Positions 2,704-39,460 are shown, counted from the first letter of the stretch. The stretch is DNA of 64,000 nt from Escherichia coli (GCF_044324785.1 NZ_CP172127.1); one strand, 5' to 3'. Notes: generated by a model from the letters alone, not told the origin. Numbers and translations: made by a program.

Positions 2704-3561
2704 TTAGCCCTGAAAACGGGCGCTGTACTCTCCCGGCGTCAGACCAAACTGACGCCGGAAAACGCGACAAAAATAGTCGCTATCCGGAAAACCGCAACGC
2801 TGCGCCACTTCATGAATCGACAGATGATATTTCTGCAAAATCATCCTCGCCTTCGCCATTCGCACCCAACGCACATATTCGATAAAACGCATTGTTCCAT
2901 GCTGCGCAAACAGTTTTGACAGATGATTGGGCGTGATATTAAAAAACAGCGCCACGCTCTCACGGGTGAGCGGCTGGGCATAATTATCCTGAACCCAGTT
3001 ACAAATGCTGTGATAAAGAAAATCGCCGCGCGGCTGCGAATTGCCCGGCGGCATATTCACCACGTTACGGCAAAGATGCAGCAAACTTAACACCAGCGGC
3101 TGAATGATATTCTGCTCCAGCGGCGAACGGCTAAGATGGGTGAGTGCAGTAAGCATTGCTTCACCTTCGCCGCGTTGCAGGCTGGGAAGTTGGATCTGGC
3201 GAGCAGGATGCAACAACGACGTGGTGCGGCTATCGTAAAACGATAACCCAAGCCAGGTCGGTGCGAACACCAGGCTTAACAGCATCACCGGTTTGTTGTT
3301 GATCGGTAAATTAGCCGCGCGCGCTGGAATAAACAGCATTTCTCCTTCAACCATACGTTGCTGCTTTGCTTCCAGCAGATTGCCGTATTCGCCGCGCAGC
3401 ACGATATCCAGACGGGGAAAATCAATACATAAACTGCCCACCGGTAACGAGGCAGGCTGGCTGGCAAACCAGACGCGCCCCAGTAGTTGCGGGTTAAGCA
3501 CCAGGCCGCTGAACAGATCGGCGAAAAATTGTTGATCGGCGGGCAAGCCTGGTGCTTTCAT
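2704..3561 (-). CDS. ypdC: AraC-family transcriptional regulator
   Basis: 285-aa ORF with C-terminal AraC-type HTH region; convergent with fryA as in K-12. Confidence 0.85.
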   Translation of the reverse strand: MKAPGLPADQQFFADLFSGLVLNPQLLGRVWFASQPASLPVGSLCIDFPRLDIVLRGEYGNLLEAKQQRMVEGEMLFIPARAANLPINNKPVMLLSLVFAPTWLGLSFYDSRTTSLLHPARQIQLPSLQRGEGEAMLTALTHLSRSPLEQNIIQPLVLSLLHLCRNVVNMPPGNSQPRGDFLYHSICNWVQDNYAQPLTRESVALFFNITPNHLSKLFAQHGTMRFIEYVRWVRMAKARMILQKYHLSIHEVAQRCGFPDSDYFCRVFRRQFGLTPGEYSARFQG

Positions 3562-3573
3562 GAAAGTTCCCGA

Positions 3574-4326
3574 TTAAAGATGCATTAACTGGCGGAATTC
3601 TTTAACTTTGCTGCGGCTGACCGGCACTTCAAAATCCAGATCTTTCAGCCGCAGAATATAGGTGTTATTAAACCACGGTTCGATCTCGCGGATTTTGTTC
3701 AGATTGACACAAAATGAGCGATGGCAGCGGAAAAAATGCGACGGCGGCAGCTTGCTGCAAAACTCGGTAATGTTCATCGGCATTACGTAGGATTCACGCC
3801 GCGTATAGACAAAGGTCATTTTCTCGTGCGCTTCGGCGTAATAGATATCGTTAATTGGCGTGACAATGATTCGCTCATCTTTCACCAGATTAATGGTGTC
3901 ATTCTCACGCGTTACCGTCGCGGCAGGCGTACTGCTGGTCTGCTGTTGTTGCCAGGCTGCTTCCAGTTTTTGCAGCATCCCGGTAATGCGTGACTCCTGA
4001 TACGGTTTGAGAATGTAGTCAAACGCTTCCAGTTCAAATGCTTCTACCGCATGTTCTTTCCACGCGGTGATGAACACAATAAACGGTTTATGGGCGAACT
4101 GGCTGATGTTTTGCGCCAGCAACACGCCATCCAGCGACGGAATATTGATATCCAGAAAAATGGCGTCGACGCGGTTATGCTGCAAAAACTTCAACACGTC
4201 CAGACCGTCGTCAAAGGTGCCGACAATCTCCATCTGGCTGTGCTCTTTAATTAGCCAGCTCAGTTCCTGTTGTGCCAGGAATTCGTCTTCAACAATGATG
4301 ACTTTCACAATATCACTCCGGCTCAA
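3574..4326 (-). CDS. ypdB: LytTR-family response regulator of the pyruvate-responsive YpdA/YpdB two-component system
   Basis: ORF contains VKVIIVEDE, matching the YpdB N-terminus MKVIIVEDE; true start is probably the GTG at 4308 giving 244 aa, while the ATG at 4326 overlaps the ypdA stop. Confidence 0.88.
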
Positions 4327-9718: not shown

Positions 9719-9994
9719 CTATCGCACAGGATGGATAAGATAATTCGCCTTTGTCGGAAAAGGGGGCGGAATTTCTTCTGTGAGGTTTAATGGTGGCGCA
9801 TCTTCTCTCAACTTAAACAAAATCGCCTGTGATGGCTGAAGTTTTGTAGAATGAGTTGTCGTCATCACTGACGTTTTTTCTGTCTCTTTATAGCTCGTCT
9901 CACTTCCACCACCAGAAATAGAAAATGCAAAAACATTGCATGCCATAATAGAGACCAATAAAAATAAGCTAAAAAGCATTAAGTTTACTTTCAT
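9719..9994 (-). CDS. ypdI: lipoprotein YpdI
   Basis: 91-aa ORF with signal peptide and lipobox-like motif (LLVSIMAC); position matches ypdI. Confidence 0.75.
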   Translation of the reverse strand: MKVNLMLFSLFLLVSIMACNVFAFSISGGGSETSYKETEKTSVMTTTHSTKLQPSQAILFKLREDAPPLNLTEEIPPPFPTKANYLIHPVR

Positions 9995-10135
9995 AGAAAG
10001 TTATCCTGAAAATGGTTCACTGAAAACCTACGACGTTATGGCTGTATTTACATATAATTAATCAGTATTTACATCGATATAATAAATGACATCTCTTTTT
10101 GGTATATAAGAATAGTTCTCTGTGACAGGAAGCAT

Positions 10136-10153
10136 ATTCCTACAATTGTAAGA
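10136..10153. promoter_or_regulatory. putative EvgA box upstream of yfdX
   Basis: TTCCTACA-AT-TGTAAGAC matches the 18-bp EvgA inverted-repeat consensus TTCPyTACA-N2-TGTAPuGAA as I recall it; about 135 bp upstream of the yfdX start. Confidence 0.6.
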
Positions 10154-10289
10154 CTAAAATACTTCTTGCGATAATAACTACAGCTGTAAGATAACCCTTT
10201 CAAAATGACCGTTGCTCTCTGATTTCTCATTTCATGCTCACCCAATATGATGGCGGCGTTTTCTAAAACTGTTAAAGAATGAGGTAAGT

Positions 10290-10922
10290 ATGAAACGTTT
10301 AATTATGGCTACGATGGTCACAGCAATTCTGGCATCTTCAACTGTATGGGCGGCTGATAATGCACCGGTAGCGGCACAACAGCAAACTCAGCAAGTTCAG
10401 CAAACCCAGAAAACGGCAGCAGCAGAGCGTATCTCTGAACAAGGTTTATATGCGATGCGTGACGTGCAGGTAGCGCGCCTGGCTCTGTTTCATGGCGATC
10501 CGGAAAAGGCAAAAGAACTGACCAATGAAGCTTCAGCTTTGTTGTCAGATGACAGTACCGAATGGGCAAAGTTCGCTAAGCCAGGTAAAAAGACCAATCT
10601 CAATGATGACCAATATATTGTCATTAATGCATCTGTCGGAATTTCTGAGAGTTATGTAGCGACACCCGAAAAAGAAGCCGCGATAAAAATTGCCAACGAA
10701 AAAATGGCGAAAGGGGATAAAAAGGGCGCAATGGAAGAGCTTCGCCTGGCCGGTGTTGGCGTAATGGAAAACCAATATCTGATGCCGCTTAAACAGACTC
10801 GTAATGCACTTGCTGATGCGCAGAAACTGCTTGATAAAAAGCAATACTACGAGGCAAACCTGGCGCTTAAAGGTGCTGAAGATGGAATCATCGTCGATAG
10901 CGAAGCACTGTTTGTGAACTAA
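10290..10922 (+). CDS. yfdX: periplasmic protein YfdX (EvgA-regulated)
   Basis: 210-aa ORF with N-terminal signal peptide; position and sequence consistent with YfdX. Confidence 0.88.
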
Positions 10923-11165
10923 AGCTGACAGGCAATATATTGAGGTAAAGGATTTAACTCCCTCCAGCCGACAATTTTTTATGACCACAATACGACAGGT
11001 TGTGGTCATAAAATTATTTGGCGCTCGCGGTTCTATAAACTCGCATTTTATCTTCCTCAAAGTAACCCGCAATAATTCCGTGTCATCACAAATCATTTAT
11101 TATGTTATGCTTTATGGTACGCTTTAAAAAGCGTAATCATACCCTTACTTGTAAATCACCGGCGC

Positions 11166-11183
11166 TTCTTACAGTTGTAAGAA
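11166..11183. promoter_or_regulatory. putative EvgA box of the frc-oxc-yfdV-yfdE promoter
   Basis: TTCTTACA-GT-TGTAAGAA is a perfect match to the EvgA inverted-repeat consensus; about 250 bp upstream of the frc start codon at 11435. Confidence 0.65.
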
Positions 11184-11446
11184 TAACATCACAAATGTCG
11201 CGGCTCTCTCTGATTACCGCGAACCAATATTTATCATATTCTTCTTTTCGTCCTCACTACTTACCATGCAGAAAGGAATTGGAAGTGGCGATGAAATGAT
11301 TATCAGCACTTGATACAGGAATTTAAAAATATCGAGTGCAGCTACGACGATATTTTGCGGATTATTTATAGAGAGCGTTATGCCTTAAATAAACGCTAAA
11401 TTAACATATATTTAATTAACTAATAGGTATTGCTATGTCAACTCCA

Positions 11447-11455
11447 CTTCAAGGA
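11447..11455. repeat. 9-bp target site duplication (left copy) of the IS903 insertion
   Basis: CTTCAAGGA immediately left of the IS, identical to 12513-12521. Confidence 0.9.
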
Positions 11456-11473
11456 GGCTTTGTTGAATAAATC
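11456..11473. repeat. IS903 terminal inverted repeat (transposase-distal end)
   Basis: GGCTTTGTTGAATAAATC, perfect reverse complement of 12495-12512. Confidence 0.9.
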
Positions 11474-11511
11474 AGATTTCGGGTAAGTCTCCCCCGTAGC
11501 GGGTTGTGTTT

Positions 11512-12435
11512 TCAGGCAATACGCACGCTTTCAGGCATACCTGCTTTCGTCATTTTGTTCAGCGCTCGTACCAGGGCCATAGCCTCCGCAACCTGACCAT
11601 CGTAGTCACGCAGCGTCAGTGAACCCCCGAACAGCTGTTTTACCCGGTACATCGCCGTTTCCGCTATCGAGCGACGGTTGTAATCTGTTGTCCATTTCCA
11701 CCGCGCATTACTCCCGGTCATTCGCTGATTAGCCACTGCACGGTTACGGTCTGCATATTCACCGGGCCAGTAACCCGCACCTTTTCGGGGAGGGATAAGC
11801 GCGCTGATTTTCTTACGCCGCAGTTCATCGTGACATAGCCGGGTATCGTAAGCGCCATCGGCGGCGGCTGACCTGATTTTCCGGTGGGTTTGCCGGATTA
11901 ACCCGGGGAAGGCCTCTGAGTCCGTAACGTTGTTCAGCGACAGGTCAGCGCAGATGATTTCATGTGTTTTACTGTCAACGGCGAGATGCAGCTTACGCCA
12001 GATACGGCGGCGTTCCTGGCCATGCTTTTTGACTTTCCACTCGCCTTCACCGAAGACCTTCAGCCCGGTGGAATCAATTACCAGGTGTGCGATTTCACCC
12101 CGGGTGGGCGTTTTGAAACTGACATTAACCGACTTTGCCCGCCTGCTGACACAGCTGTAATCCGGGCAGCGTAGCGGAACGTTCATCAGAGAAAAAATGG
12201 AATCAATAAAGCCCTGCGCAGCCCGCAGGGTCAGCCTGAATACGCGTTTAATGACCAGCACAGTAGTGATGGCAAGGTCAGAATAGCGCTGAGGTCTGCC
12301 TCGTGAAGAAGGTGTTGCTGACTCATACCAGGCCTGAATAGCTTCATCATCCAGCCAGAAAGTTATGGAGCCACGGTTGATGAGGGCTTTATTGTAGGTG
12401 GGCCAGTTGGTGATTTTGAACTTTTGCTTTGCCAC
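11512..12435 (-). CDS. IS903 transposase (DDE, IS5 family)
   Basis: Translation ...AKQKFKITNWPTYNKALINRGSITFWLDDEAIQAWYE...MPESVRIA matches the IS903 transposase; likely GTG start at 12435 gives 307 aa, whereas the track ORF begins at an upstream in-frame ATG at 12480. Confidence 0.9.
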   Translation of the reverse strand: MAKQKFKITNWPTYNKALINRGSITFWLDDEAIQAWYESATPSSRGRPQRYSDLAITTVLVIKRVFRLTLRAAQGFIDSIFSLMNVPLRCPDYSCVSRRAKSVNVSFKTPTRGEIAHLVIDSTGLKVFGEGEWKVKKHGQERRRIWRKLHLAVDSKTHEIICADLSLNNVTDSEAFPGLIRQTHRKIRSAAADGAYDTRLCHDELRRKKISALIPPRKGAGYWPGEYADRNRAVANQRMTGSNARWKWTTDYNRRSIAETAMYRVKQLFGGSLTLRDYDGQVAEAMALVRALNKMTKAGMPESVRIA

Positions 12436-12494
12436 GGAACGGTCTGCGTTGTCGGGAAGATACGTGATCTGATCCTTCAACTCAGCAAAAGTTC

Positions 12495-12512
12495 GATTTA
12501 TTCAACAAAGCC
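12495..12512. repeat. IS903 terminal inverted repeat (transposase-proximal end)
   Basis: GATTTATTCAACAAAGCC, reverse complement of 11456-11473. Confidence 0.9.
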
Positions 12513-12521
12513 CTTCAAGGA
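12513..12521. repeat. 9-bp target site duplication (right copy) of the IS903 insertion
   Basis: CTTCAAGGA identical to 11447-11455; a 9-bp duplication is what I recall for IS903. Confidence 0.9.
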
Positions 12522-13804
12522 ATTAAAGTTCTCGATTTCACCGGTGTGCAATCTGGCCCATCTTGTACTCAGATGCTGGCCTGGTTTGGCGCTGACGTCA
12601 TTAAAATTGAACGTCCCGGCGTTGGTGACGTAACGCGTCACCAGCTGCGAGATATTCCTGATATCGATGCGCTTTACTTCACCATGCTTAACAGTAACAA
12701 ACGTTCTATTGAATTAAATACCAAAACAGCGGAAGGCAAAGAGGTAATGGAAAAGCTGATCCGCGAAGCTGATATCTTAGTCGAGAACTTTCATCCAGGG
12801 GCCATTGATCACATGGGCTTCACCTGGGAGCATATTCAAGAAATCAATCCACGTCTGATTTTTGGTTCGATCAAAGGGTTTGATGAGTGTTCGCCTTATG
12901 TGAATGTAAAAGCCTATGAAAACGTTGCTCAGGCAGCGGGTGGTGCGGCATCCACTACAGGTTTTTGGGACGGCCCGCCGCTGGTAAGCGCTGCAGCGTT
13001 GGGTGACAGCAACACCGGAATGCATTTGCTGATCGGTTTACTTGCTGCTTTGCTGCATCGCGAAAAAACGGGGCGTGGGCAACGAGTTACCATGTCAATG
13101 CAGGATGCCGTGTTGAACCTTTGCCGCGTGAAATTACGCGACCAGCAGCGTCTCGATAAGTTGGGGTATCTGGAAGAATACCCGCAGTATCCGAATGGCA
13201 CATTTGGTGATGCAGTTCCCCGCGGTGGTAATGCGGGTGGTGGCGGTCAGCCTGGCTGGATCCTGAAATGTAAAGGCTGGGAAACCGATCCTAATGCCTA
13301 TATTTATTTCACTATTCAGGAGCAAAACTGGGAAAACACCTGTAAAGCTATCGGCAAACCAGAATGGATTACCGATCCGGCATATAGTACAGCTCATGCC
13401 CGACAGCCACATATTTTCGATATTTTTGCTGAAATCGAAAAATACACTGTCACTATTGATAAACATGAAGCGGTGGCCTATTTGACTCAGTTTGATATTC
13501 CTTGTGCACCGGTTTTAAGTATGAAAGAAATTTCACTTGATCCCTCTTTGCGCCAAAGTGGCAGTGTTGTCGAAGTGGAACAACCGTTGCGTGGAAAATA
13601 TCTGACAGTTGGTTGTCCAATGAAATTCTCTGCCTTTACGCCGGATATTAAAGCTGCGCCGCTATTAGGTGAACATACCGCTGCTGTATTGCAGGAGTTG
13701 GGTTATAGCGACGATGAAATTGCTGCAATGAAGCAAAACCACGCCATCTGATATTAACGGGGGCTTCTGGCTCCCAATTTATAAAAATTTCGAGGTTATT
13801 AATC

Positions 13805-15499
13805 ATGTCAGATCAACTTCAAATGACAGATGGTATGCATATCATCGTTGAAGCATTAAAACAGAATAATATTGACACTATTTATGGTGTTGTAGGTATT
13901 CCTGTGACGGATATGGCACGCCATGCCCAGGCGGAAGGCATTCGTTATATTGGTTTTCGTCATGAGCAGTCGGCAGGCTATGCCGCTGCGGCAAGCGGTT
14001 TTCTTACCCAAAAACCAGGGATCTGCCTGACAGTGTCTGCGCCAGGATTCCTCAATGGTTTGACCGCATTGGCCAACGCAACGGTAAATGGTTTTCCGAT
14101 GATCATGATTAGCGGCTCCAGCGACCGCGCGATCGTCGACCTACAGCAAGGTGATTATGAAGAGCTGGACCAAATGAATGCGGCAAAACCGTATGCCAAA
14201 GCAGCATTCCGCGTTAATCAGCCGCAGGATCTTGGCATTGCATTGGCACGCGCTATCCGGGTCTCAGTATCGGGTCGCCCTGGCGGAGTTTATCTTGATT
14301 TGCCTGCAAATGTCCTGGCCGCGACGATGGAAAAAGACGAAGCGTTAACCACGATTGTAAAAGTTGAAAATCCGTCGCCAGCATTATTGCCATGCCCGAA
14401 GTCAGTCACTAGCGCAATTTCGCTTTTAGCAAAAGCTGAACGGCCATTAATTATCCTTGGCAAAGGCGCGGCGTATTCACAAGCTGATGAACAGCTTCGT
14501 GAATTTATTGAAAGTGCTCAGATCCCATTCCTGCCAATGTCTATGGCGAAAGGGATCCTCGAAGATACGCATCCACTTTCTGCGGCAGCTGCGCGTTCGT
14601 TTGCCCTGGCAAATGCTGACGTTGTCATGCTTGTTGGTGCACGACTGAATTGGTTACTGGCGCACGGTAAAAAAGGATGGGCGGCAGATACACAGTTTAT
14701 TCAACTGGAAATTGAACCGCAGGAAATTGACAGCAACCGCCCCATTGCTGTGCCAGTCGTTGGTGATATTGCATCCAGTATGCAAGGTATACTGGCAGAA
14801 TTGAAACAAAACACATTTACGACTCCACTGGTATGGCGCGATATTTTAAATATCCACAAGCAGCAAAATGCACAAAAAATGCATGAAAAATTAAGTACAG
14901 ATACTCAACCATTAAATTACTTTAATGCATTAAGTGCTGTGCGCGACGTATTGCGCGAGAACCAGGATATTTATTTAGTTAATGAAGGGGCAAATACCCT
15001 GGATAATGCACGAAATATTATTGATATGTATAAACCACGTCGTCGTCTGGATTGTGGCACCTGGGGTGTCATGGGCATCGGTATGGGCTATGCCATCGGT
15101 GCTAGCGTGACTTCTGGTTCTCCGGTTGTCGCCATTGAAGGTGATAGTGCTTTTGGTTTCAGTGGGATGGAGATTGAAACGATTTGTCGATATAACCTGC
15201 CGGTGACGATCGTTATTTTTAATAATGGCGGCATTTACAGAGGAGACGGTGTTGATCTCAGTGGCGCTGGTGCACCATCACCAACAGATCTATTGCACCA
15301 TGCAAGGTATGACAAATTAATGGATGCGTTTCGTGGCGTTGGCTATAACGTCACTACGACAGATGAACTTCGTCATGCTTTAACCACCGGTATTCAGTCG
15401 CGCAAACCGACCATTATTAATGTGGTCATCGACCCTGCAGCAGGAACTGAAAGTGGCCATATTACCAAACTTAACCCAAAACAAGTCGCTGGTAATTAA
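13805..15499 (+). CDS. oxc: oxalyl-CoA decarboxylase (thiamine diphosphate-dependent)
   Basis: 564-aa ORF recognised as Oxc; directly downstream of frc. Confidence 0.92.
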
Positions 15500-15567
15500 A
15501 TACTGACATCGTCTCCTCTTGCCAACTCATTATCGATGGTGAGGGGACCCTTATCGGAAATACTATT

Positions 15568-16512
15568 ATGCTAACATTTTTTATTGGCGATTTATTGCCT
15601 ATTATCGTAATCATGCTGTTGGGTTATTTTAGCGGCAGACGAGAAACTTTTTCAGAAGATCAAGCCCGGGCATTTAATAAACTGGTATTAAACTACGCTC
15701 TTCCTGCGGCTCTATTTGTATCTATTACCCGGGCAAACAGGGAAATGATTTTTGCGGACACTCGTCTGACCCTTGTATCACTTGTGGTTATTGTCGGATG
15801 TTTCTTTTTCTCCTGGTTCGGTTGCTACAAATTTTTTAAACGTACTCATGCAGAAGCAGCAGTATGTGCATTAATTGCAGGTTCACCTACCATTGGATTC
15901 CTGGGATTTGCAGTTCTCGATCCTATTTATGGTGATTCCGTATCAACAGGTTTAGTTGTAGCAATTATTTCTATTATTGTTAACGCAATTACTATTCCTA
16001 TTGGTCTGTATTTGCTGAATCCTTCCTCAGGAGCGGATGGTAAGAAGAATAGTAATCTGAGCGCATTAATTTCTGCGGCAAAGGAGCCAGTAGTATGGGC
16101 ACCTGTTCTGGCAACGATCCTGGTGTTGGTTGGGGTAAAAATTCCGTCAGCATGGGACCCAACCTTTAATCTGATTGCGAAGGCTAACTCAGGGGTAGCG
16201 GTATTCGCTGCGGGGTTGACTCTGGCTGCACATAAATTCGAGTTCAGTGCCGAAATTGCTTATAACACCTTCCTGAAGCTGATTCTGATGCCACTGGCGC
16301 TGCTTCTCGTTGGTATGGCATGTCATTTGAACAGCGAACATTTGCAGATGATGGTACTGGCAGGCGCTTTACCGCCGGCATTCTCCGGAATCATTATTGC
16401 CAGCCGGTTTAATGTCTACACCCGCACTGGTACAGCATCATTGGCTGTGAGCGTACTGGGCTTTGTCGTCACGGCTCCCTTGTGGATTTATGTCAGTCGA
16501 CTGGTTTCATAA
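15568..16512 (+). CDS. yfdV: AEC-family membrane transporter
   Basis: 314-aa polytopic membrane ORF between oxc and yfdE. Confidence 0.88.
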
Positions 16513-16585
16513 TTAATCATGTTATTGATTTTACATAAATGCCGAAGTGTCTTTTCACCTTCGGCTTTTTTCAAGGCATAAGCAA

Positions 16586-17731
16586 ATGACAAATAATGAA
16601 TGCAAAGGGCCGTTTGAAGGCTTATTAGTTATCGATATGACACATGTCCTTAATGGACCTTTCGGAACTCAACTTCTTTGTAATATGGGCGCAAGGGTAA
16701 TTAAAGTTGAGCCGCCGGGTCATGGTGATGATACCCGCACATTTGGTCCCTATGTGGATGGGCAGTCACTCTATTACAGTTTTATTAATCATGGCAAAGA
16801 GAGTGTGGTTCTTGATTTAAAGAATGCTCACGATAAAAGTATATTTATAAATATGCTTAAACAAGCTGATGTATTAGCTGAGAATTTTCGCCCAGGTACA
16901 ATGGAAAAACTGGGGTTTTCATGGGAAACGCTACAAGAAATCAACCCGCGTCTCATATATGCTTCATCGTCAGGTTTTGGGCATACCGGCCCGCTAAAAG
17001 ATGCTCCAGCCTACGATACCATCATTCAGGCAATGAGCGGGATAATGATGGAAACAGGGTACCCTGATGCTCCGCCAGTGCGCGTGGGTACCTCTCTTGC
17101 GGATTTATGTGGCGGTGTCTATTTATTCAGCGGAATAGTGAGTGCACTTTATGGCCGCGAAAAGAGCCAGAGAGGGGCGCATGTCGATATAGCGATGTTT
17201 GATGCCACGCTGAGTTTTCTGGAGCATGGTCTGATGGCATATATTGCGACAGGGAAGTCACCACAACGCCTGGGAAATCGCCATCCCTACATGGCACCTT
17301 TTGATGTTTTTGATACTCAGGATAAGCCGATTACGATTTGTTGTGGTAATGACAAGCTTTTTTCTGCGTTATGCCAGGCACTGGAGCTTACGGAACTGGT
17401 TAATGATCCCCGATTTAGCAGCAATATTTTACGCGTACAAAACCAGGCTATTCTTAAACAATATATTGAGCGAACGTTAAAAACACAGGCAGCTGAAGTT
17501 TGGTTAGCCAAAATACATGAAGTTGGTGTGCCCGTCGCGCCGTTATTAAGTGTGGCTGAGGCCATTAATTTGCCACAAACTCAGGCGAGAAATATGTTGA
17601 TTGAAGCCGGGGGAATAATGATGCCAGGTAATCCGATAAAAATCAGCGGCTGCGCGGACCCGCATGTTATGCCGGGAGCGGCAACGCTCGACCAGCATGG
17701 GGAACAAATTCGCCAGGAATTCTCATCGTAA
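16586..17731 (+). CDS. yfdE: CoA-transferase family III protein (acetyl-CoA:oxalate CoA-transferase)
   Basis: Track ORF 16547-17731; the YfdE N-terminus MTNNECKGPFEGLLVIDMTH puts the start at 16586 (381 aa); paralogous to Frc. Confidence 0.88.
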   Translation: MTNNECKGPFEGLLVIDMTHVLNGPFGTQLLCNMGARVIKVEPPGHGDDTRTFGPYVDGQSLYYSFINHGKESVVLDLKNAHDKSIFINMLKQADVLAENFRPGTMEKLGFSWETLQEINPRLIYASSSGFGHTGPLKDAPAYDTIIQAMSGIMMETGYPDAPPVRVGTSLADLCGGVYLFSGIVSALYGREKSQRGAHVDIAMFDATLSFLEHGLMAYIATGKSPQRLGNRHPYMAPFDVFDTQDKPITICCGNDKLFSALCQALELTELVNDPRFSSNILRVQNQAILKQYIERTLKTQAAEVWLAKIHEVGVPVAPLLSVAEAINLPQTQARNMLIEAGGIMMPGNPIKISGCADPHVMPGAATLDQHGEQIRQEFSS

Positions 17732-17753
17732 ATGTTAGATATGCTGGTAAATA

Positions 17754-17780
17754 GCTCCCACATTTGAACATTGTGGGAGC
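17754..17780. terminator. hairpin between convergent yfdE and evgS (probable bidirectional terminator)
   Basis: GCTCCCACA (17754-17762), 9-nt loop, TGTGGGAGC (17772-17780); T-rich sequence on the plus-strand side only moderately convincing. Confidence 0.5.
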
Positions 17781-17786
17781 CGCTAT

Positions 17787-20700
17787 TTAGTCATTTTGTT
17801 GACAGAAAACAGCAATCTCCTGGTCTAACTCTGCAATGTGTTCTTTAACAGAGTTCAGCAACTTAAGAATTTCAGGCTTGCTGTCATCTGAAACGGGCGT
17901 TATTTCTAACTGATGGCTAATATTAATCAACTTTTGCAAATTCAGGATGTTAGCCGCACCGTGGATGCGATGAATACACTGATGGAAAGTTCTGTTGTCG
18001 CCAGCTTCTAGTGCATGAAACGCAGCGGGTAGATCTTTATGCGTTTCATGCTGGAAAGTCATGAGAATCTCCTGCATCAGTTGTAGATCGTTCGCCGTAT
18101 TATTTTTCAGGGCCTCGATATCAAGGTGGCGATACTGAGGTGCAATATGCGCAACCTGGTGTAACTGACTTAAATGTGTTTTCAGTACATCCAGGGTCAA
18201 CGGTTTGAACAAACATAAGTTCATGCCGCAATTTAACCCTTTTTCACGTTCGTTAGCCTGTGCGTTGGCTGTAAGCCCCCAGATGGGTAAGGAAGAATTT
18301 TGCTCACGGAGTTTGCGAGTCAACTCAAAACCATCCATATTCGGCATATTAACGTCAGTAATAAGCAGATCATAATGTTGCATACTGACTTTGTGTAGCG
18401 CTTGCACACCATCAGTTGCTTCATCAACATCATATCCTAATAGGTTTAGCTGGCGTTTGAGTAATAGCCTGTTGGTCGGATGATCATCCGCTATTAATAT
18501 GCTCAACTTTTCAGGGAGTGTCATAGGTTGTTCTGCTTTTGCCTCGACAGTCGCCACTTGTTGGGTAATTTCTACCGGGATTGTGATCGTAAATGTCGTT
18601 CCTATGCCTGGATGACTTTCTAATGATAAATCGCCCTGCATGTTTTTAATTAATTCTTTGCAGATCATTAAGCCTAAACCAGAACCTGTTTGCTGACGAC
18701 CTGCACTTGTTTGGCTATAGCGTTTAAACAGTTGTTGTTGTTCTTCCTGCGATAATCCACTTCCAGAATCCATAATCGTCATTTTGATAACAGCGTGGTT
18801 GTCATCAATGTGACCCAGGGAGGTCGTAATTTTTACTGCCCCCTCGGTAGTAAATTTAAGAGCATTGCTCAGTAAATTAGATAAGACCTGCTTAAACGCC
18901 TGAGGGTCGATCTTAACCTGGTAATGTTCTGGAAACGTACTGCTGCAACTTAATGCGATGGATTTGCTTGCAGCAATCGCACCGAAAGAGTGACAAGTGT
19001 TCTGGACTAAAGTAGGGATGTCGACCCATTGTGGTTGAAGTTGATAGTTACCCGACTCAATTTTGTCGACATCAAGGATTTCACCAATTAAGCCGAGGAG
19101 TGATTGTCCGGTGGCGTAGGCAAGTGAAATCGCCTCCACCCGTTGCTCCTTGCTAAGACCAGAACCCGACAGAAGTTCGAGGAAGCCCATAATGGAGCTT
19201 ATTGGTGTTCTTATTTCGTGACTCATTGTTGCCAGAAACTGGCTTTTTGCGACAGTTGCATTGATCGCTTTATTTCTCTCTACTTCGAGTGCATGAATTA
19301 AATCACGCGTCTCGGTAATATCTTGCCAACCACAAATATAAACAGCATGATCGCTGGCTGGCAGATTGCATAATGTATGCCAGTGATTAATGCATCTTTT
19401 CTCGATGCCATTATCAATTTCAAATACCTGTGTGTATATTGTTCGATTTTCTTTCGTTTCTGCTGTGACTTCATGCGCATTAGAAAAAACATCTTTAAAG
19501 GGTGAGTCACTGTTTTCTAATGGTAACATTGCATTTTTGTAGTAATCCGCAGTGAAATAATGTTCAAAAGCACTATTATGACTAATGACATTACCTTGCC
19601 AGTTTACAACATAAGTTGGATTCGGTAAGGAATCCGAGAGTGCTTTTCGGAATGATATTTGGTTTTCTAAATCACCCTGAATGACTTTACGACGACGAAC
19701 TGAGCGTAACAGGTAGAATCCCCATAAAAGGCTACTGCCAACTAATAAAACGGATAATGTCGTGACAATATAAAATTGCTCGCTATAGAGGTCCCATGTG
19801 TCAATGGTCACATTGGGCATTTTAATCCATTTTTCCGTCAGGCGCAGAACTTCGCTTGGGGGAATTGCATTCAGTGCTTTATTAATAATATCCTTAAGTT
19901 CCGGTTCTCCGCGAGGAAAAGCGAACGAAAGCGATGCATTCTGAACGCCGGGAATAAGAAAATGATAAAGTTCATTAGGATAGTAATGGTCGATCATGTA
20001 ACGCGAATTTAGCTGTGTCGCGACCAGAGCATCAAGTTCACCTTCCTTGACCTTGTGAAATGCAGCACTAGCGTTATCGACTTTTATCCACTCTACCTCC
20101 GGATACATCTCTTTTAATTGCGAATGAAGCTCATAATAATATGGAATGGCAACTTTCATTCCTTTTTTTAATGTTTGTTCACTGTCAGGCGCTTTTTGCA
20201 TGACAAAAACGTAAGGCGTTGTTATGAAGGCTTCAGCAAATGAAACATTATTTTCTCGATCTTCACTATAAATAGCGGCGGGCAATATATCCCATCCACC
20301 GGGGTTAAGCTGTGTCCCCGCATGAATATTGTGTGAAACGGTGATCGGAGAAAAATTTAAACCTGTTTGCAAGGTAATAATATTAAGAATATCACCCATC
20401 ACGCCCCGAACTGAGCCAGTTTCATCTGTCATAGAATAGGGTGGCGAGTAAGGATTTTCCAGCACCTTTAAATCGGGATGCTGCTTAATCCACTGTTTTT
20501 CATGTTCAGTGAGTTCTAATGGTTTGTTCAGAAAGGCCAGGTTTCCTGTATCAAGCCAATTTTGTGATACTTCATAGCGAACTTCATTTGTTAAAGCATC
20601 AACAAACCGATTGAGTACTTCATTAAGAACGACTGAATCTTTTCTGGTTAAGAAAAAGTTATATTGACGCGGCGAGTTATAATATTTCACTACATTTAAG

Positions 20701-21380
20701 GAGTGAGTGAAATAGCGGGAAATCATACTGCTGGTAATAATGTTACTACCAATAAAGTAATCATTCTGTCCGGCTGAGACGGATGCTAATGCCTGATATA
20801 AATTTGTAAAAGAGATAATTGTTGCTTTTGGAAATGATTGATGAATTACCTCGTCTGGAGGGTAATTTGCTACCCGAGCAATATTTACTGGTTTTGATGA
20901 GGTAAGCGGTCTCATTGAATCGTGAAGGGTGGTGACCAGCGCCGGAAAGGTAATTATCAGCGGTTTGGTTGCAGCAATGTCATCATTAAGAGGCGGCGAA
21001 GCAACTAAATGTGATAACACTATATCGACTTCACCTTCTTCCAGCGCGTCCATTGCTTTTTGATGATCGGCGTATTCCCGGAGTGTTAATTTGATATTTA
21101 ACGCTCTTTTTAAAAGATTTAAATAATCAGCATTAATACCACGAACCCGTTGCTGCGAATCGGTATGCAACAACGTAGCCGTTTGGGACTTGTGTACTGC
21201 AATCACAAGATTTTTTTTGCTCGCTAACCAACGTAATTCCTTGTTGCTCAGACGTAGTGGATCAAGTGTGACACGGTTGTTACTACTGATGCCACGATAT
21301 TCGATGTAATCTTCGTCTGCGAAACTTATGGTCGACCAAAGACCACAACAGAGAAGAAAAATATAGGGTAAAAACTTCAT
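17787..21380 (-). CDS. evgS: hybrid sensor histidine kinase EvgS (acid and drug resistance two-component system)
   Basis: 1197-aa ORF with periplasmic binding-protein-like domains, histidine kinase core, receiver and HPt domains; recognised as EvgS. Confidence 0.95.
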   Translation of the reverse strand: MKFLPYIFLLCCGLWSTISFADEDYIEYRGISSNNRVTLDPLRLSNKELRWLASKKNLVIAVHKSQTATLLHTDSQQRVRGINADYLNLLKRALNIKLTLREYADHQKAMDALEEGEVDIVLSHLVASPPLNDDIAATKPLIITFPALVTTLHDSMRPLTSSKPVNIARVANYPPDEVIHQSFPKATIISFTNLYQALASVSAGQNDYFIGSNIITSSMISRYFTHSLNVVKYYNSPRQYNFFLTRKDSVVLNEVLNRFVDALTNEVRYEVSQNWLDTGNLAFLNKPLELTEHEKQWIKQHPDLKVLENPYSPPYSMTDETGSVRGVMGDILNIITLQTGLNFSPITVSHNIHAGTQLNPGGWDILPAAIYSEDRENNVSFAEAFITTPYVFVMQKAPDSEQTLKKGMKVAIPYYYELHSQLKEMYPEVEWIKVDNASAAFHKVKEGELDALVATQLNSRYMIDHYYPNELYHFLIPGVQNASLSFAFPRGEPELKDIINKALNAIPPSEVLRLTEKWIKMPNVTIDTWDLYSEQFYIVTTLSVLLVGSSLLWGFYLLRSVRRRKVIQGDLENQISFRKALSDSLPNPTYVVNWQGNVISHNSAFEHYFTADYYKNAMLPLENSDSPFKDVFSNAHEVTAETKENRTIYTQVFEIDNGIEKRCINHWHTLCNLPASDHAVYICGWQDITETRDLIHALEVERNKAINATVAKSQFLATMSHEIRTPISSIMGFLELLSGSGLSKEQRVEAISLAYATGQSLLGLIGEILDVDKIESGNYQLQPQWVDIPTLVQNTCHSFGAIAASKSIALSCSSTFPEHYQVKIDPQAFKQVLSNLLSNALKFTTEGAVKITTSLGHIDDNHAVIKMTIMDSGSGLSQEEQQQLFKRYSQTSAGRQQTGSGLGLMICKELIKNMQGDLSLESHPGIGTTFTITIPVEITQQVATVEAKAEQPMTLPEKLSILIADDHPTNRLLLKRQLNLLGYDVDEATDGVQALHKVSMQHYDLLITDVNMPNMDGFELTRKLREQNSSLPIWGLTANAQANEREKGLNCGMNLCLFKPLTLDVLKTHLSQLHQVAHIAPQYRHLDIEALKNNTANDLQLMQEILMTFQHETHKDLPAAFHALEAGDNRTFHQCIHRIHGAANILNLQKLINISHQLEITPVSDDSKPEILKLLNSVKEHIAELDQEIAVFCQQND

Positions 21381-21384
21381 GTGG

Positions 21385-21999
21385 TTAGCCGATTTTGTTA
21401 CGTTGTGCGAATGTGTAAAGATCCATCAGTGATTTACATTCTAATTTTTCCATCAGGCGACTTTTATAAGTGCTGACAGTTTTGTTGCTGATGAACATTT
21501 TTTCAGCAATGTCATTATTATCCTTGCCATCAAGAATATATCGCATGACACTAATTTCTTGTTTCGATAAGGAGTCGAGTTTTTGCTGGTCGGACGTTAA
21601 ACTTCCAACAAACCGGTTGAGAGAGAAGGGGAAATAGCAGTAGCCATTTTTTGCAGCTTCAATAGCCGCAATGATATTGTTCATGCCTTCTTTTTTACTC
21701 ACGAATCCATTAGCGCCAGCATCAGCACAATGTTTCCCGTAAAAATGGTCATTTTTAGCGGAGACGATAATAATAATTCCGCTATATTGACGCTTCCTTA
21801 GCGTTTCTAACACCTGGATACCGTTAACTCCGGGGATATCGACATCAATGATGACGATATCAGGCTTAAGTGTTTCCACCCGCTGAACGGCGCTTCCGCC
21901 TTCAGTCAACTCTGCTAAGATTTCAATATCGTTTTTGATCAATAAATTACGAATAGCTGCGATAGCAAGAGGATGGTCATCAATAATTATTGCGTTCAT
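21385..21999 (-). CDS. evgA: response regulator EvgA (LuxR/NarL family)
   Basis: 204-aa ORF MNAIIIDDHPLAIAAIRNLL... recognised as EvgA; directly upstream of evgS on the same strand. Confidence 0.95.
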   Translation of the reverse strand: MNAIIIDDHPLAIAAIRNLLIKNDIEILAELTEGGSAVQRVETLKPDIVIIDVDIPGVNGIQVLETLRKRQYSGIIIIVSAKNDHFYGKHCADAGANGFVSKKEGMNNIIAAIEAAKNGYCYFPFSLNRFVGSLTSDQQKLDSLSKQEISVMRYILDGKDNNDIAEKMFISNKTVSTYKSRLMEKLECKSLMDLYTFAQRNKIG

Positions 22000-22222
22000 A
22001 GATTATTCCCTTTGCAATGAAGCATCTCCCTTCTCCCTGTAGTAATACAGACATAAGGCATCATCTCATTTTCTCAATAAAAATAAGAAAATTTGAGCTT
22101 CCTTTAAGATAATTCGACAAGTATACCATATAAATAGTCGGCATAAATGAAATGTCAACAATAAAATCAGGGATTGTACCGATGATTTATAGTTTCACAT
22201 TAGCACTATAAGTCTTCTCACT

Positions 22223-22240
22223 AATCCTACAGGCGTAAGA
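22223..22240. promoter_or_regulatory. putative EvgA box in the evgA-emrK divergent intergenic region
   Basis: ATCCTACA-GG-CGTAAGAA, 16 of 18 matches to the EvgA consensus inverted repeat; lies between the divergent evgA and emrK genes. Confidence 0.55.
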
Positions 22241-22414
22241 ATTGTATTGCAAAAGCCACGGTTTAGTCCTCTGTTGTTTCTTTTGCACCTCATTTAAATT
22301 AGGCCTCCAACGTTCCTGGGATAATGTGCAACACATGCACTGTGTTTGATATGAAGAATGAATACTCTTTTCATTCAATTCATAAATTTCATCTATGCGA
22401 AATGAGAGATAATA

Positions 22415-33092: not shown

Positions 33093-34433
33093 TCAGAACG
33101 CGTAGTTAAAGTTAGTACCGAACAGCCAGGCTTTACCTTCTGACTCGAAGGAATAAGCTGCCGGTCCTTCACCTTCAGTAAACTTCACATTCTGACCGTG
33201 CATATAAGATGCACCAACGTCAATGGATGCATCTTCATTAAATGCGTAGGTTAACCCAGCACTTAACCACAAGCGATCCTGGTCAGGAATAGAAATAGAA
33301 CGTTTATCGGCCGGAACTGGGCTATCGTCATAGGCGATACCGGTACGGAAGGTCCAGTTTTTATCGTAATAGTAGGTTGTACCCAACGCGATACGATATG
33401 CGTCACGGAATCCTTCATCTTTATAGAACAGAGTCTGACCACTATCGCCTTTCGCTTTCAACTCCTGGAACTGGCTCCAACTGGTATAGGCCATGCTGTA
33501 GTGAATTGCCCACTGTGGCGCAACACGGTTATAACCAGAAATCTCCCACATCTCAGGTAAATTCAGCGTCAAGGACCCATTTTGGGTTGCACCCATTGTG
33601 CCATACGGTAAACCCATGCTACCCAAAATGTTGTTCAGATTTGGGTTAATGGAACTTTTGTAATCCCCTTCGAAGTCGATTTTAACTTCAGAACGATAGG
33701 TTAGGCCCCAACGGTTGTCTTTATCCAGTTCATAAAGAATACCCGCGTTCCAGCCAAAGCCCCATTCGTCACCTTTCAGATGAGCAATTTGAGAGTCCGG
33801 GGTATTAATACCATTGGTTAGTGAAGCGGGTACACCTTGGGCAATCAACTGTTGAGACAACAAAGGCCCCAGCGAACCGGCGTAACGCTCAATTTTTGCC
33901 TTAGCGTATACAGCATCAAAACCAAGACCAAAACTCCAGCTATTGTTAAGGCGATAGGCTCCGCTAAGGTTAAGGTTGATTGTTTGCAGATCGGTTTTAC
34001 CGCCATAGATTCCAGCAGCGTAGTTATCATTAAATTCCGTGGCCAGACCATAGTTCGAGGTAATAGAAGCCCCCCAACCAAACTGATCGTTAATAGGTGC
34101 TACGAAATGTAGATTAGGTACCCACGCAGTTGGTGCAATATTATCTGCATCAGCACGCTGGCCCGTTAAATCGGAACGCCCAGAAATATCTACATCCGGA
34201 TCAATATAAACCGCACCCGCAGAAAATGTCGGGCGGTCAAACATGGTAATCAATGCGGGGTTACGGCTAACGTTACCTGCATCATCGGCAATTGCACCTT
34301 CCCCTGAATAAGCCCGGCCCAGGCCAGAGGAAGAAAATTCGTTTAACTGAAAGCCTGCCGACCAGGCCTGGGTGGAGATAAGTGCCACTGCGACTGCGAG
34401 AGCAGACTTTGTAAACAGGGTTTTCTGGCTCAT
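33093..34433 (-). CDS. fadL: long-chain fatty acid outer membrane transporter
   Basis: Track ORF 33093-34439; the FadL N-terminus [29 protein letters not shown] puts the start at 34433; ends with the beta-barrel C-terminal motif NFNYAF. Confidence 0.95.
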
Positions 34434-34522
34434 GACCATAACCTCAATGATTTATTTTTATACAAACTATGTTACGTGCTGTAACAGGAGCGCGAAGTGT
34501 AGGGTCTGAGGTACATCTTAGA

Positions 34523-34559
34523 AATCAGACCAGTGGCGAGAGTATAGGTCGGACCAGCT
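34523..34559. promoter_or_regulatory. two putative FadR operator sites in the fadL promoter region
   Basis: 34544-34559 reverse complement AGCTGGTCCGACCTAT and 34523-34536 reverse complement CCACTGGTCTGATT resemble the FadR palindrome (CTGGTC-N-GACCAG type). Confidence 0.55.
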
Positions 34560-34804
34560 GGAATGTTGCAAGTATGTTTCTATCTTTTTTCAAATATGAT
34601 CTAAGAAACGCGATCCAGCTGGCAAAATTTGGAGGTGGCGCACTCATGGATTCGGGTGAATTTTGTTTTAGATCATTTTTAAGTGTGATTTCGGTCACTT
34701 ATCCGATTTTGCAGAATTAACAACTGGAGCAGCACTTTCCGGAAGCGTAAAATATCCACAACGTTTATCTGGCACCTTGGGTGCACATACAGAGGAAATC
34801 AACG

Positions 34805-35089
34805 ATGAGTAAATGTAGTGCTGATGAAACCCCGGTTTGCTGCTGTATGGATGTTGGCACCATTATGGACAACTCCGACTGCACCGCGTCTTACAGCCGC
34901 GTGTTTGCAAACCGCGCAGAAGCAGAACAAACGCTGGCGGCGCTGACTGAAAAAGCCCGTAGCGTGGAATCCGAACCGTGCAAAATCACCCCGACTTTCA
35001 CTGAAGAGTCTGACGGTGTGCGCCTGGATATCGATTTCACTTTTGCCTGCGAAGCTGAAATGCTGATCTTCCAGCTGGGTCTGCGTTAA
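34805..35089 (+). CDS. yfcZ: small protein YfcZ (UPF0381)
   Basis: Track ORF 34781-35089; the YfcZ N-terminus MSKCSADETPVCCCMDVGT puts the start at 34805 (94 aa). Confidence 0.88.
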   Translation: MSKCSADETPVCCCMDVGTIMDNSDCTASYSRVFANRAEAEQTLAALTEKARSVESEPCKITPTFTEESDGVRLDIDFTFACEAEMLIFQLGLR

Positions 35090-35106
35090 TTCCTCTCGGG
35101 TGCGTA

Positions 35107-35143
35107 CGCCCCTGTCAGTTGTTGGCAGGGGCGTTTTATTTTC
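35107..35143 (+). terminator. intrinsic terminator downstream of yfcZ
   Basis: CGCCCCTG (35107-35114), 11-nt loop, CAGGGGCG (35126-35133), then TTTTATTTT. Confidence 0.75.
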
Positions 35144-35226
35144 TCTTCTACTTTTCTCTCTGTGTCATAGCTCCCACTTTCCCTTTTCTCCACTTGGCTA
35201 AATGTAAAAAAATGGTTAAGACTATG

Positions 35227-35243
35227 ATCAGGTCAGACCACTT
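35227..35243. promoter_or_regulatory. putative FadR operator upstream of fadIJ
   Basis: Reverse complement AAGTGGTCTGACCTGAT closely matches the FadR operator palindrome; about 30 bp upstream of the fadI start. Confidence 0.6.
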
Positions 35244-35269
35244 TATTTATTATTTTACAGGGGAGTGTT

Positions 35270-36580
35270 ATGGGTCAGGTTTTACCGCTGGTTACCCGCC
35301 AGGGCGATCGTATCGCCATTGTTAGCGGTTTACGTACGCCTTTTGCCCGCCAGGCGACGGCTTTTCATGGCATTCCCGCGGTTGATTTAGGGAAGATGGT
35401 GGTAGGCGAACTGCTGGCACGCGGCGAAATTCCCGCCGAAGTGATTGAACAACTGGTCTTTGGTCAGGTCGTACAAATGCCGGAAGCCCCCAACATTGCG
35501 CGTGAAATTGTTCTCGGCACCGGAATGAATGTGCATACCGATGCTTACAGCGTCAGCCGCGCTTGCGCTACCAGTTTCCAGGCGGTTGCAAACGTCGCAG
35601 AAAGCCTGATGGCGGGAACTATTCGCGCGGGGATTGCCGGTGGGGCCGATTCCTCTTCCGTATTGCCAATTGGCGTCAGTAAAAAACTGGCGCGCGTGCT
35701 GGTTGATGTCAACAAAGCTCGAACCATGAGCCAGCGCCTGAAACTCTTCTCTCGCCTGCGTTTGCGCGACTTAATGCCCGTACCGCCTGCGGTAGCAGAA
35801 TATTCTACTGGCTTACGGATGGGCGACACCGCCGAACAAATGGCGAAAACCTACGGTATTACTCGCGAACAGCAAGATGCATTAGCGCACCGTTCGCATC
35901 AGCGAGCCGCTCAGGCCTGGTCAGACGGTAAACTCAAAGAAGAGGTGATGACTGCCTTTATCCCTCCTTATAAACAACCGCTTGCCGAAGACAACAATAT
36001 TCGCGGTAATTCCTCGCTTGCTGATTACGCAAAGTTGCGTCCGGCGTTTGATCGTAAACACGGGACGGTAACGGCAGCAAACAGTACGCCGCTGACCGAT
36101 GGCGCAGCGGCGGTGATCCTGATGACCGAATCGCGGGCGAAAGAATTAGGGCTGGTACCGCTGGGGTATCTGCGCAGTTACGCATTTACTGCGATAGATG
36201 TCTGGCAGGACATGTTGCTCGGTCCGGCCTGGTCAACGCCGCTGGCGCTGGAACGTGCCGGTTTGACAATGAGCGATCTGACATTGATCGATATGCACGA
36301 AGCCTTTGCAGCTCAGACACTGGCGAATATTCAGTTGCTGGGTAGCGAACGTTTTGCTCGTGATGTACTGGGGCGTGCACATGCCACTGGCGAAGTGGAC
36401 GATAGCAAATTTAACGTGCTTGGCGGTTCGATTGCTTACGGGCATCCCTTCGCGGCGACCGGCGCGCGGATGATTACCCAGACATTGCATGAACTTCGCC
36501 GTCGCGGCGGTGGATTTGGATTAGTGACCGCCTGTGCTGCGGGTGGGCTTGGCGCGGCAATGGTTGTGGAGGCGGAATAA
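35270..36580 (+). CDS. fadI: 3-ketoacyl-CoA thiolase (anaerobic beta-oxidation)
   Basis: 436-aa thiolase ORF recognised as FadI (YfcY). Confidence 0.95.
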
Positions 36581-38724
36581 TGGAAATGGCATCAGCGTTT
36601 ACCCTTAATGTCCGTCTGGACAACATTGCTGTTATCACCATCGACGTACCGGGTGAGAAAATGAATACCCTGAAGGCGGAGTTTGCCTCGCAGGTGCGCG
36701 CCATTATTAAACAACTCCGCGAAAATAAAGATCTGCGCGGTGTGGTGTTTATCTCCGCGAAACCGGACAACTTTATCGCTGGTGCAGACATCAACATGAT
36801 CGGCAACTGCAAAACGGCGCAAGAAGCGGAAGCACTGGCGCGGCAGGGTCAACAGTTAATGGCGGAGATTCATGCTTTGCCCGTTCCGGTTATCGCGGCT
36901 ATTCATGGCGCTTGCCTGGGCGGTGGGCTGGAGTTGGCGCTGGCGTGCCACGGTCGCGTGTGTACTGATGATCCTAAAACGGTGCTCGGTTTGCCTGAAG
37001 TACAACTTGGATTAATACCCGGTTCAGGCGGCACCCAGCGTTTACCGCGCCTGATAGGTGTCAGCACAGCATTAGAGATGATCCTCACTGGAAAACAACT
37101 TCGGGCGAAACAGGCATTAAAGCTGGGGCTGGTGGATGACGTCGTTCCGCAATCAATTTTACTGGAAGCCGCTGTTGAGCTGGCAAAGCAGGATCGTCCA
37201 TCTTCACGCCCTCTACCTGTACGCGAGCGTATTCTGGCGGGGCCGTTAGGTCGTGCGCTGCTGTTCAAAATGGTCGGCAAGAAAACAGAACACAAAACTC
37301 AGGGTAACTATCCGGCGACAGAACGCATCCTGGAGGTTGTCGAAACGGGATTAGCGCAGGGCACCAGTAGCGGCTATGACGCTGAAGCCCGTGCTTTTGG
37401 CGAACTGGCGATGACGCCGCAATCGCAGGCGCTGCGTAGTATCTTTTTTGCCAGTACGGACGTGAAGAAAGATCCTGGCAGTGATGCGCCGCCTGCGCCA
37501 TTAAACAGCGTGGGAATTTTAGGTGGTGGCTTGATGGGCGGCGGTATTGCTTACGTCACTGCTTGTAAAGCGGGGCTTCCGGTCAGAATTAAAGATATCA
37601 ACCCGCAGGGCATAAATCATGCGCTGAAGTACAGTTGGGATCAGCTGGAGGGCAAAGTTCGCCGTCGTCATCTCAAAGCCAGCGAACGTGACAGACAGCT
37701 GGCATTAATCTCCGGAACGACGGACTATCGCGGCTTTGCCCATCGCGATCTGATTATTGAAGCGGTGTTTGAAAATCTCGAATTAAAACAACAGATGGTG
37801 GCGGAAGTGGAGAAAAATTGCGCCGCTCATACCATCTTTGCTTCGAACACGTCATCTTTACCGATTGGCGATATCGCCGCTCACGCCGCGCGACCTGAGC
37901 AAGTTATTGGCCTGCATTTCTTCAGTCCGGTGGAAAAAATGCCGCTGGTGGAGATTATTCCTCATGCGGGGACATCGGCGCAAACCATCGCTACCACAGT
38001 AAAACTGGCGAAAAAACAGGGTAAAACGCCAATTGTCGTGCGTGACAAAGCCGGGTTTTACGTCAATCGCATTTTAGCGCCTTACATTAATGAAGCTATC
38101 CGCATGTTGACCGAAGGTGAACGGGTAGAGCACATTGATGCCGCGCTGGTGAAATTTGGTTTTCCGGTAGGCCCAATCCAACTTTTGGATGAGGTAGGAA
38201 TCGACACCGGGACTAAAATTATTCCTGTACTGGAAGCCGCTTATGGAGAACGTTTTAGCGCGCCTGCAAATGTTGTTTCTTCAATTTTGAACGACGATCG
38301 CAAAGGCAGAAAAAATGGCCGGGGTTTCTATCTTTATGGTCAGAAAGGGCGTAAAAGCAAAAAACAGGTCGATCCCGCCATTTACCCGCTGATTGGCACA
38401 CAAGGGCAGGGGCGACTCTCCGCACCGCAGGTAGCTGAACGGTGTGTGATGTTGATGCTGAATGAAGCAGTACGTTGTCTGGACGAGCAGGTTATCCGTA
38501 GCGTGCGTGACGGAGATATTGGCGCGGTATTTGGCATTGGTTTTCCGCCATTTCTCGGTGGTCCGTTCCGCTACATCGATTCTCTCGGTGCGGGTGAAGT
38601 GGTTGCAATAATGCAACGACTGGCCACGCAGTATGGTTCCCGTTTTACCCCTTGCGAGCGTTTAGTCGAGATGAGCAAGCGTGGGGAAAGTTTTTGGAAA
38701 ACAACTGCAACTGACCTGCAATAA
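36580..38724 (+). CDS. fadJ: fatty acid oxidation complex alpha subunit (enoyl-CoA hydratase / 3-hydroxyacyl-CoA dehydrogenase)
   Basis: 714-aa ORF recognised as FadJ (YfcX); start overlaps the fadI stop. Confidence 0.95.
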
Positions 38725-38926
38725 GAAGGTCAAAGCTATATGAATCCGCGCTGAATGGCGGAGTGTTGCTCAAAATGTAAACGCATATTGACTATACTTA
38801 CGCCATTGAGGTAAAAAACAGCGTTTCATTCGGTGAATGGATAAGGCACAATGCCGGCCACCGTTTTCTTTCTCTGGTTTCAGATGAAAGAAAACGGGCG
38901 AATCTGGTTAACAAAAGCGGTGCAAT

Positions 38927-39412: not shown

Positions 39413-39423
39413 TACGCATGCAC

Positions 39424-39460
39424 AAGGCCCGCTGGCGTAAGCTATCGGGCCTTTATTTTT
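39424..39460 (+). terminator. intrinsic terminator downstream of sixA
   Basis: AAGGCCCG (39424-39431), loop, CGGGCCTT (39446-39453), then TATTTTT. Confidence 0.75.

Follow-up and report, generated by a model that had tools for sequence, protein, structure and literature searches.

A recent-looking IS903B insertion predicted to inactivate frc in Escherichia coli, within a low-GC region hit repeatedly by IS903-group elements

The frc gene contained in the window (the whole 64-kb stretch of Escherichia coli DNA that we analysed) is interrupted at codons 5–7 by a complete copy of IS903B. The explanation that accounts best for the data, and that we hold with high confidence, is a recent transposition of this element into frc, yielding a null allele, with a low-GC island as the favored target. 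IS903B is a common enterobacterial element, usually plasmid-borne, that would have transposed into the E. coli chromosome; its transposase would have cut frc codons 5–7 with the 9-bp stagger that characterizes the IS903 group, and repair of this cut would have left CTTCAAGGA duplicated. This is an ordinary and already understood kind of mutation, an insertional knock-out by a well-known element. It implies no new biology, and the frc knock-out is of local interest for the phenotype of the strain and for annotation.

The element spans 1,057 bp (positions 11456–12512, minus strand), with its transposase gene antisense to frc. A repeat search located the terminal inverted repeats at 11456–11473 (transposase-distal end, GGCTTTGTTGAATAAATC) and 12495–12512 (transposase-proximal end, GATTTATTCAACAAAGCC); they match perfectly, over 18 of 18 bp, and are the same as the ends of IS102 on pSC101. 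The same search showed that both ends of the element are directly abutted by a copy of the 9-bp target-site duplication CTTCAAGGA, the left one (11447–11455) corresponding to frc codons 5–7 and the right one occupying positions 12513–12521; the chance that a specified 9-mer matches at a fixed position is approximately 4e-6. The original prediction of a complete 1057-bp element of the IS903 type, with 18-bp inverted repeats and a perfect 9-bp duplication at codons 5–7 of frc, was therefore borne out in full, and the element can now be given the more precise name of IS903B.

The only long ORF inside IS903B is that of the transposase (11512–12435, minus strand), which codes for 307 aa from a GTG at 12435, the size that had been put forward for an intact IS903-like transposase; the maximal ORF comprises 322 aa from a TTG at 12480, and PGAP annotates this 322-aa form in other genomes. 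The deduced product scores 357.6 bits against the NCBIfam equivalog of the IS5 family (NF033579, cutoff 140) and matches the Pfam domains DDE_Tnp_1_5 (PF13737) and DDE_Tnp_1 (PF01609). Its catalytic residues D121, D193, and E259 are intact, as is the YREK motif (Y252-R255-E259-K266), in positions that we take to follow the IS903 transposase numbering of the papers from the Derbyshire laboratory. The window copy is 100% identical, over positions 1–1057, to plasmid copies annotated as "IS5-like element IS903B family transposase," and the plasmids with identical copies come from Escherichia, Klebsiella, Enterobacter, Citrobacter, and Shigella; a relative of this element is present in at least 5,000 plasmid records. 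Alignment to the IS903 group, proposed beforehand as a check, thus runs end to end with IS903B and also, at 92.9% identity, with IS102 of pSC101, which has an equal length and aligns without gaps. Judged from its sequence, that is, from its length, inverted repeats, 9-bp duplication, DDE transposase and identity to a named member, the element is IS903B, which belongs to the IS903 group of the IS5 family and is a textbook case of it.

Several features bear on the age and state of the insertion. The element shows zero divergence from circulating IS903B, both the inverted repeats and the duplication are perfect, the catalytic motif is intact, and the remnant of frc is free of secondary lesions; restoring the reading frame produces a Frc protein of 416 aa that is 100% identical to the crystallised YfdW from strain K-12 (PDB 1pt5/1pqy). 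Together, these features suggest that the insertion is recent and that the element looks competent for transposition, in agreement with the earlier proposal of a recent and possibly mobile copy.

We reconstructed the empty site by deleting the IS and one copy of the repeat, and searched the resulting 600-nt query against 5,426 complete E. coli genomes. The flanking 9-mers had been expected to derive from a single sequence in uninterrupted frc alleles, and this is what we found: 5,393 of the 5,426 genomes carry the reconstructed site, in which CTTCAAGGA is present once, without interruption, and three E. coli genomes match it at 100%. The exact frc::IS903B junction was absent from the complete E. 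coli genomes, a search with 38 nt of exact junction sequence retrieved no match among the GTDB species representatives, and we found nothing in the literature on frc::IS903B specifically. The flanks of the nearest complete genomes are only 97.2–98.7% identical to the window and, in consequence, the insertion is not datable against a near-clonal relative. Along positions 20000–40000 the best complete E. coli genome is around 97% identical to the window, with values of 96.6–98.7% elsewhere; this low identity would fit either an E. coli lineage without a close relative among the complete genomes or an unusually polymorphic region. The preferred target of IS903, WTTYA-N9-TRAAW, is poorly matched at the window site, whose flanks (CTCCA and ATTAA) agree with it in 5 of 10 positions. 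Ten other insertion sites were scored for the same motif, with nine of them reaching 2–6 and one of them 8 out of 10; IS903 favors this motif but does not require it.

The frequency of insertions in this region was calibrated on the same 5,426 complete genomes using chimeric queries, which consisted of the IS joined to each of seven 300-nt anchors in both orientations; a hit was defined as an IS903-group copy within ~2.1 kb of the anchor. The two landing-zone anchors were taken from positions 11306–12671 (frc) and 22050–22349 (evgA-emrK) of the window. Hits were found in 26 genomes for frc, representing ~14 independent events, and in 15 genomes for evgA-emrK (~13 events), vs. two genomes (two events) for the control anchor fadL and none for the controls ypdA, dsdX-dsdC, yfcU, and mepA, with the qualification that these figures depend on a join heuristic and on our own grouping of clonal genomes into events, and that the frc anchor was picked post hoc. 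Wherever it was checked, each site near frc had its own perfect 9-bp duplication. The GC content is 0.36–0.47 over positions 9800–25400, from yfdX to emrY, as compared to 0.47–0.54 for the control anchors. A uniform orientation of the neighboring IS903B insertions was discarded as an ascertainment artefact of same-strand joining, since a query with the IS flipped retrieved opposite cases: the tally of insertions in the orientation of the window vs. the opposite is ~9 (10 with the window) to 5 for frc, and ~10 to 3 for evgA-emrK. Any orientation bias is therefore weak, and we do not claim one.

The simplest reason for the landing of IS903 in the yfdX-emrY island would be the capture of IS5-family elements by AT-rich DNA bound by H-NS. 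This "transposon capture" has been described for IS5-family elements in AT-rich DNA (Cooper et al., 2024, PMC11335895), and a reanalysis in the same work of the data from Swingle et al. (2004) extends H-NS capture in E. coli to IS903 (PMC11335895). Within the island, H-NS directly targets the evgA promoter (PMC2984483), which was the only target there documented in the literature that we found, with no record of H-NS occupancy over yfdX-frc. As in H-NS hotspots, the region is AT-rich and shows an excess of insertions over comparable dispensable loci. The regional pattern thus fits the published capture model, with H-NS as its presumed agent at this locus, and the count of independent IS903B insertions over the yfdX-emrY island would constitute a small corroboration of the model from natural populations, to which the window insertion would add one further data point.

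An alternative reading is that the recurrent IS903B insertions in yfdX-frc-oxc and evgAS-emrKY do not result from mere target preference, and that they were retained because losing the oxalate and acid tolerance module under EvgA control is advantageous in some niches. The excess of insertions, with ~14 independent events near frc and ~13 near evgA-emrK vs. 0–2 in five equally dispensable controls, is compatible with this possibility, and poultry, livestock, meat plants, or wastewater were the sources of many carriers, including two clones from Alberta beef plants that contain different frc::IS903B alleles. Nevertheless, we consider adaptive loss unlikely, because the excess tracks low GC and the hits are spread over genic and intergenic sites of several genes, some of them upstream of yfdX, where an insertion does not necessarily inactivate anything; moreover, the frc start site is intact in more than 99% of the genomes, and the H-NS-dependent bias in IS903 insertion arises experimentally without selection (PMC11335895). 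It is equally doubtful that the ~27 independent insertions counted among the 5,426 genomes, together with that of the window, reflect a combination of H-NS capture and niche-favored loss of the EvgA-controlled module for oxalate and acid tolerance. If this were true, the window allele would be an example of adaptive gene loss occurring in parallel, with poultry, livestock, food plants, and wastewater as the niches involved.

Under the preferred reading, targeting of the low-GC island, the alleles found near frc would be separate products of the same process. The duplication is TTCTCGATT in AR_0019, at a site 15 bp downstream of that in the window and with the IS in the same orientation; ACGTAACGC in the 0H clone, at around frc codon 46; TATCCGAAT in the AH/CT clone, at frc codon 233; and CTATTTATG in ECGC74, within oxc. 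Further frc/oxc::IS903B alleles were found in ET450 and ECONIH5, whereas EC21Z-137/CT29, the strain-165 group, YJ6, LA3, 730V1, and AW1.7 have insertions in or around yfdX with various duplications. The different insertion points, with their own perfect 9-bp duplications, indicate that these were independent events.

A number of additional observations concern these and other genomes. The 0H and AH/CT clones belong to one Canadian (Alberta) submission series and have different frc::IS903B alleles (codon ~46 vs. 233); a plausible donor in the 0H strains is a 304-kb plasmid on which IS903B is also present. In E. coli O19:H7 730V1, IS5 and IS903B are adjacent in the yfdX-frc intergenic region (331–2504 of the retrieved locus), and in a chicken-farm isolate (NZ_CM188248.1) the island was hit twice, with IS903B upstream of or in yfdX and also in evgS. 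In other lineages, two or more in number and 98.1–98.6% identical to the window, at least 12 draft contigs begin 2–3 nt past the window's duplication; these starts (equivalent to positions 12523/12524, frc codons 8–9) suggest the existence of further repeat or IS insertions within ~10 bp of the window site. Two Logan contigs begin with the Tn5/Nextera mosaic end AGATGTGTATAAGAGACAG joined to frc (positions 1–22 and 1–23, respectively), which indicates adaptor carry-over or reads from a Tn5 mutant library, unrelated to IS903B. A truncated Frc product of 392 aa turned out to be an alternative start call in intact loci, and a 401-aa product occurs in draft contigs of other lineages as well as in two contigs with the Tn5 adaptor.

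The insertion cuts the bulk of frc off from its EvgA-dependent promoter, its ribosome binding site and codons 1–7, and leaves the other 412 codons without promoter, Shine-Dalgarno sequence or native start, which would result in a null allele. Translation agreed with the arrangement described in the original prediction. The truncated frc frame (11435–11470, plus strand) consists of native codons 1–7 (MSTPLQG) followed by four IS-encoded codons and a stop (GFVE*), for a product of 11 residues, MSTPLQGGFVE*. Past the IS, the duplicated CTT CAA GGA rejoins the frc frame, and the remainder (12513–13751, plus strand), devoid of promoter and start, comprises codons 5–416 plus the stop codon. Restored Frc scores 780.9 bits against TIGR03253 (cutoff 504) and 793 bits against NF003809; the equivalog match and the gene context correspond to those of Frc/YfdW, a class III CoA-transferase, but the window does not contain an uninterrupted, translatable gene.

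It is very unlikely, in our view, that the insertion is not inactivating, with a functional, N-terminally shortened Frc made by translational restart or an IS-Frc fusion, and with transcription supplied by read-through or by a promoter at the IS end, whether outward or hybrid. The frc frame is closed upstream of the remainder by a stop at 12465–12467, and the first canonical in-frame start beyond it is a GTG at 12546 (native Val16), from which a frame of 401 codons is open, while the first in-frame ATG is at 12573 (native Met25). This open frame would allow for a restart; however, there is no purine-rich Shine-Dalgarno sequence within the 20 nt preceding either start codon. The lack of such a sequence at 12546 had been correctly anticipated, although the codon had been taken for a Met and is instead a GTG, corresponding to Val16. 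Additionally, Pfam domain CoA_transf_3 extends over residues 5–393 of restored Frc and, as a result, the product of a restart at Val16 would be missing model positions 1–11, including the conserved IKVLDF strand. As for transcription, a consensus scan did not find any promoter-like site at threshold reading out of the IS into frc, and the count of promoter sites in the region was not above that of shuffled controls. A weak hybrid pair over the IS/frc junction, TCAACA-16-TAAAGT, could be argued to drive expression, but it was the best of the candidates under the threshold, with 8 of 12 matches; we found nothing in the literature on an outward promoter in IS903B.

The possibility of a fusion draws on the RefSeq annotation of AR_0019 and 0H26, where "intact" frc CDSs start inside the IS. 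In these two loci (2761–3996 and 2860–3996 of the retrieved sequences, respectively), the RefSeq/PGAP CDS starts at an ATT codon situated 13 nt inside the inverted repeat (IQQS...). This ATT is in frame with frc in AR_0019 and 0H26, but not in the window, where its frame stops after 8 codons and no IS-frc fusion frame exists. The "intact" call in both genomes is an annotation artefact that hides the disruption of the gene, and exemplifies how pipelines can call a frc remnant intact, as RefSeq does for these two sibling alleles. With the lack of a Shine-Dalgarno sequence, of a fusion frame and of a promoter at threshold, and with a domain that starts at residue 5, the inactivation of frc that had been proposed is well supported. 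We thus predict that frc is a null allele and that Frc enzyme activity is lost, and that oxalate-dependent acid tolerance would almost certainly be knocked out; the predicted phenotype of the strain is the absence of formyl-CoA transferase and of oxalate-induced acid tolerance.

The effects of the insertion could extend to the downstream genes, a point that the original prediction did not raise, as it did not raise the clustering of IS903B in the region. The gene order in the window is yfdX, frc, oxc, yfdV, and yfdE, followed by evgS-evgA and emrKY, and all of them are full length except frc. The EvgA-regulated gene yfdX (10290–10922, plus strand, 210 aa), identified from its ORF and the annotation of collinear E. 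coli loci, is intact, and so are oxc (yfdU; 13805–15499, plus strand, 564 aa), a member of the yfdWUVE transcription unit that lies beyond the insertion, yfdV (15568–16512, plus strand, 314 aa) and yfdE, for an acetyl-CoA:oxalate CoA-transferase (16586–17731, plus strand). The start of yfdE was assigned after the 381-aa annotation of its relatives, with its maximal ORF starting at 16547. Both yfdX and the yfdWUVE operon are driven by EvgA-binding repeats, with yfdX and frc-oxc-yfdVE as separate EvgA-driven units (Mullins et al., 2013, PMC3720670). Right after yfdX, positions 10977–11013 contain a strong terminator-like hairpin, with a 15-pair stem and a T-rich tail, which is consistent with this division into two units (PMC3720670). 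From the stop at 11470 to the GTG at 12546 there are 1,075 nt of untranslated sequence, antisense to the transposase gene. Since frc is the first gene of yfdWUVE, this stretch of untranslated RNA probably reduces the expression of oxc, yfdV, and yfdE, a polar effect that we deduce from the sequence, although transcripts that start at the frc promoter and read through the IS could allow the three genes to retain some expression.

The interruption of frc is almost certainly a property of the genome and not of its assembly. The alignment of the window with three relatives halts at 11455 and restarts at 12513, the two aligned blocks overlapping by 9 bp in the subject and, apart from this break, the window is collinear with the E. 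coli reference over positions 4034–53537; the break pattern, the overlap and the collinearity point to genuine transposition and not to misassembly. IS elements are a classic source of misassemblies, and this junction was found in no complete genome, but it is extremely improbable that the IS copy within frc results from a misjoin at repeats, because such a misjoin would not yield a perfect 9-bp direct duplication abutting two perfect inverted repeats, and because this arrangement recurs in ten other genomes that we checked, each with its own site and its own duplication. IS903 was originally described as the arms of Tn903, but there is a negligible probability that the window element is one arm of a similar composite transposon that carried cargo into the locus: the 64-kb window has a single IS903 copy, the duplication directly brackets one element, the collinearity with E. 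coli references is otherwise maintained, and the lack of a second bracketing copy refutes this structure within the window.

Transposition of a single IS903B copy, as the preferred explanation, agrees with what is seen in comparable systems. The alleles of AR_0019, 0H, AH/CT, ECGC74, ET450, and ECONIH5 involve the same element and the same operon as the window, with a perfect 9-bp duplication in each of those inspected. IS903B from plasmids of Klebsiella, Escherichia, and Enterobacter coincides with the window copy in sequence, 18-bp inverted repeats, 9-bp duplication and transposase, and the window copy differs only in its location, in chromosomal frc codons 5–7. IS102 from pSC101 shares with it the length and the inverted repeats, without indels, but diverges in ~7% of the nucleotides. 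Similarly to the capture hotspots of H-NS, the insertions in the region of the window cluster in an AT-rich block that looks horizontally acquired and includes an H-NS target, the evgA promoter; those hotspots, however, were defined with fresh insertion libraries, whereas here we examined natural genomes, after selection and drift. Lastly, IS903B also knocks out mgrB or ompK36 in Klebsiella pneumoniae, again by simple insertion into a chromosomal gene; antibiotics select for those alleles, whereas the frc allele has no evident selective agent.
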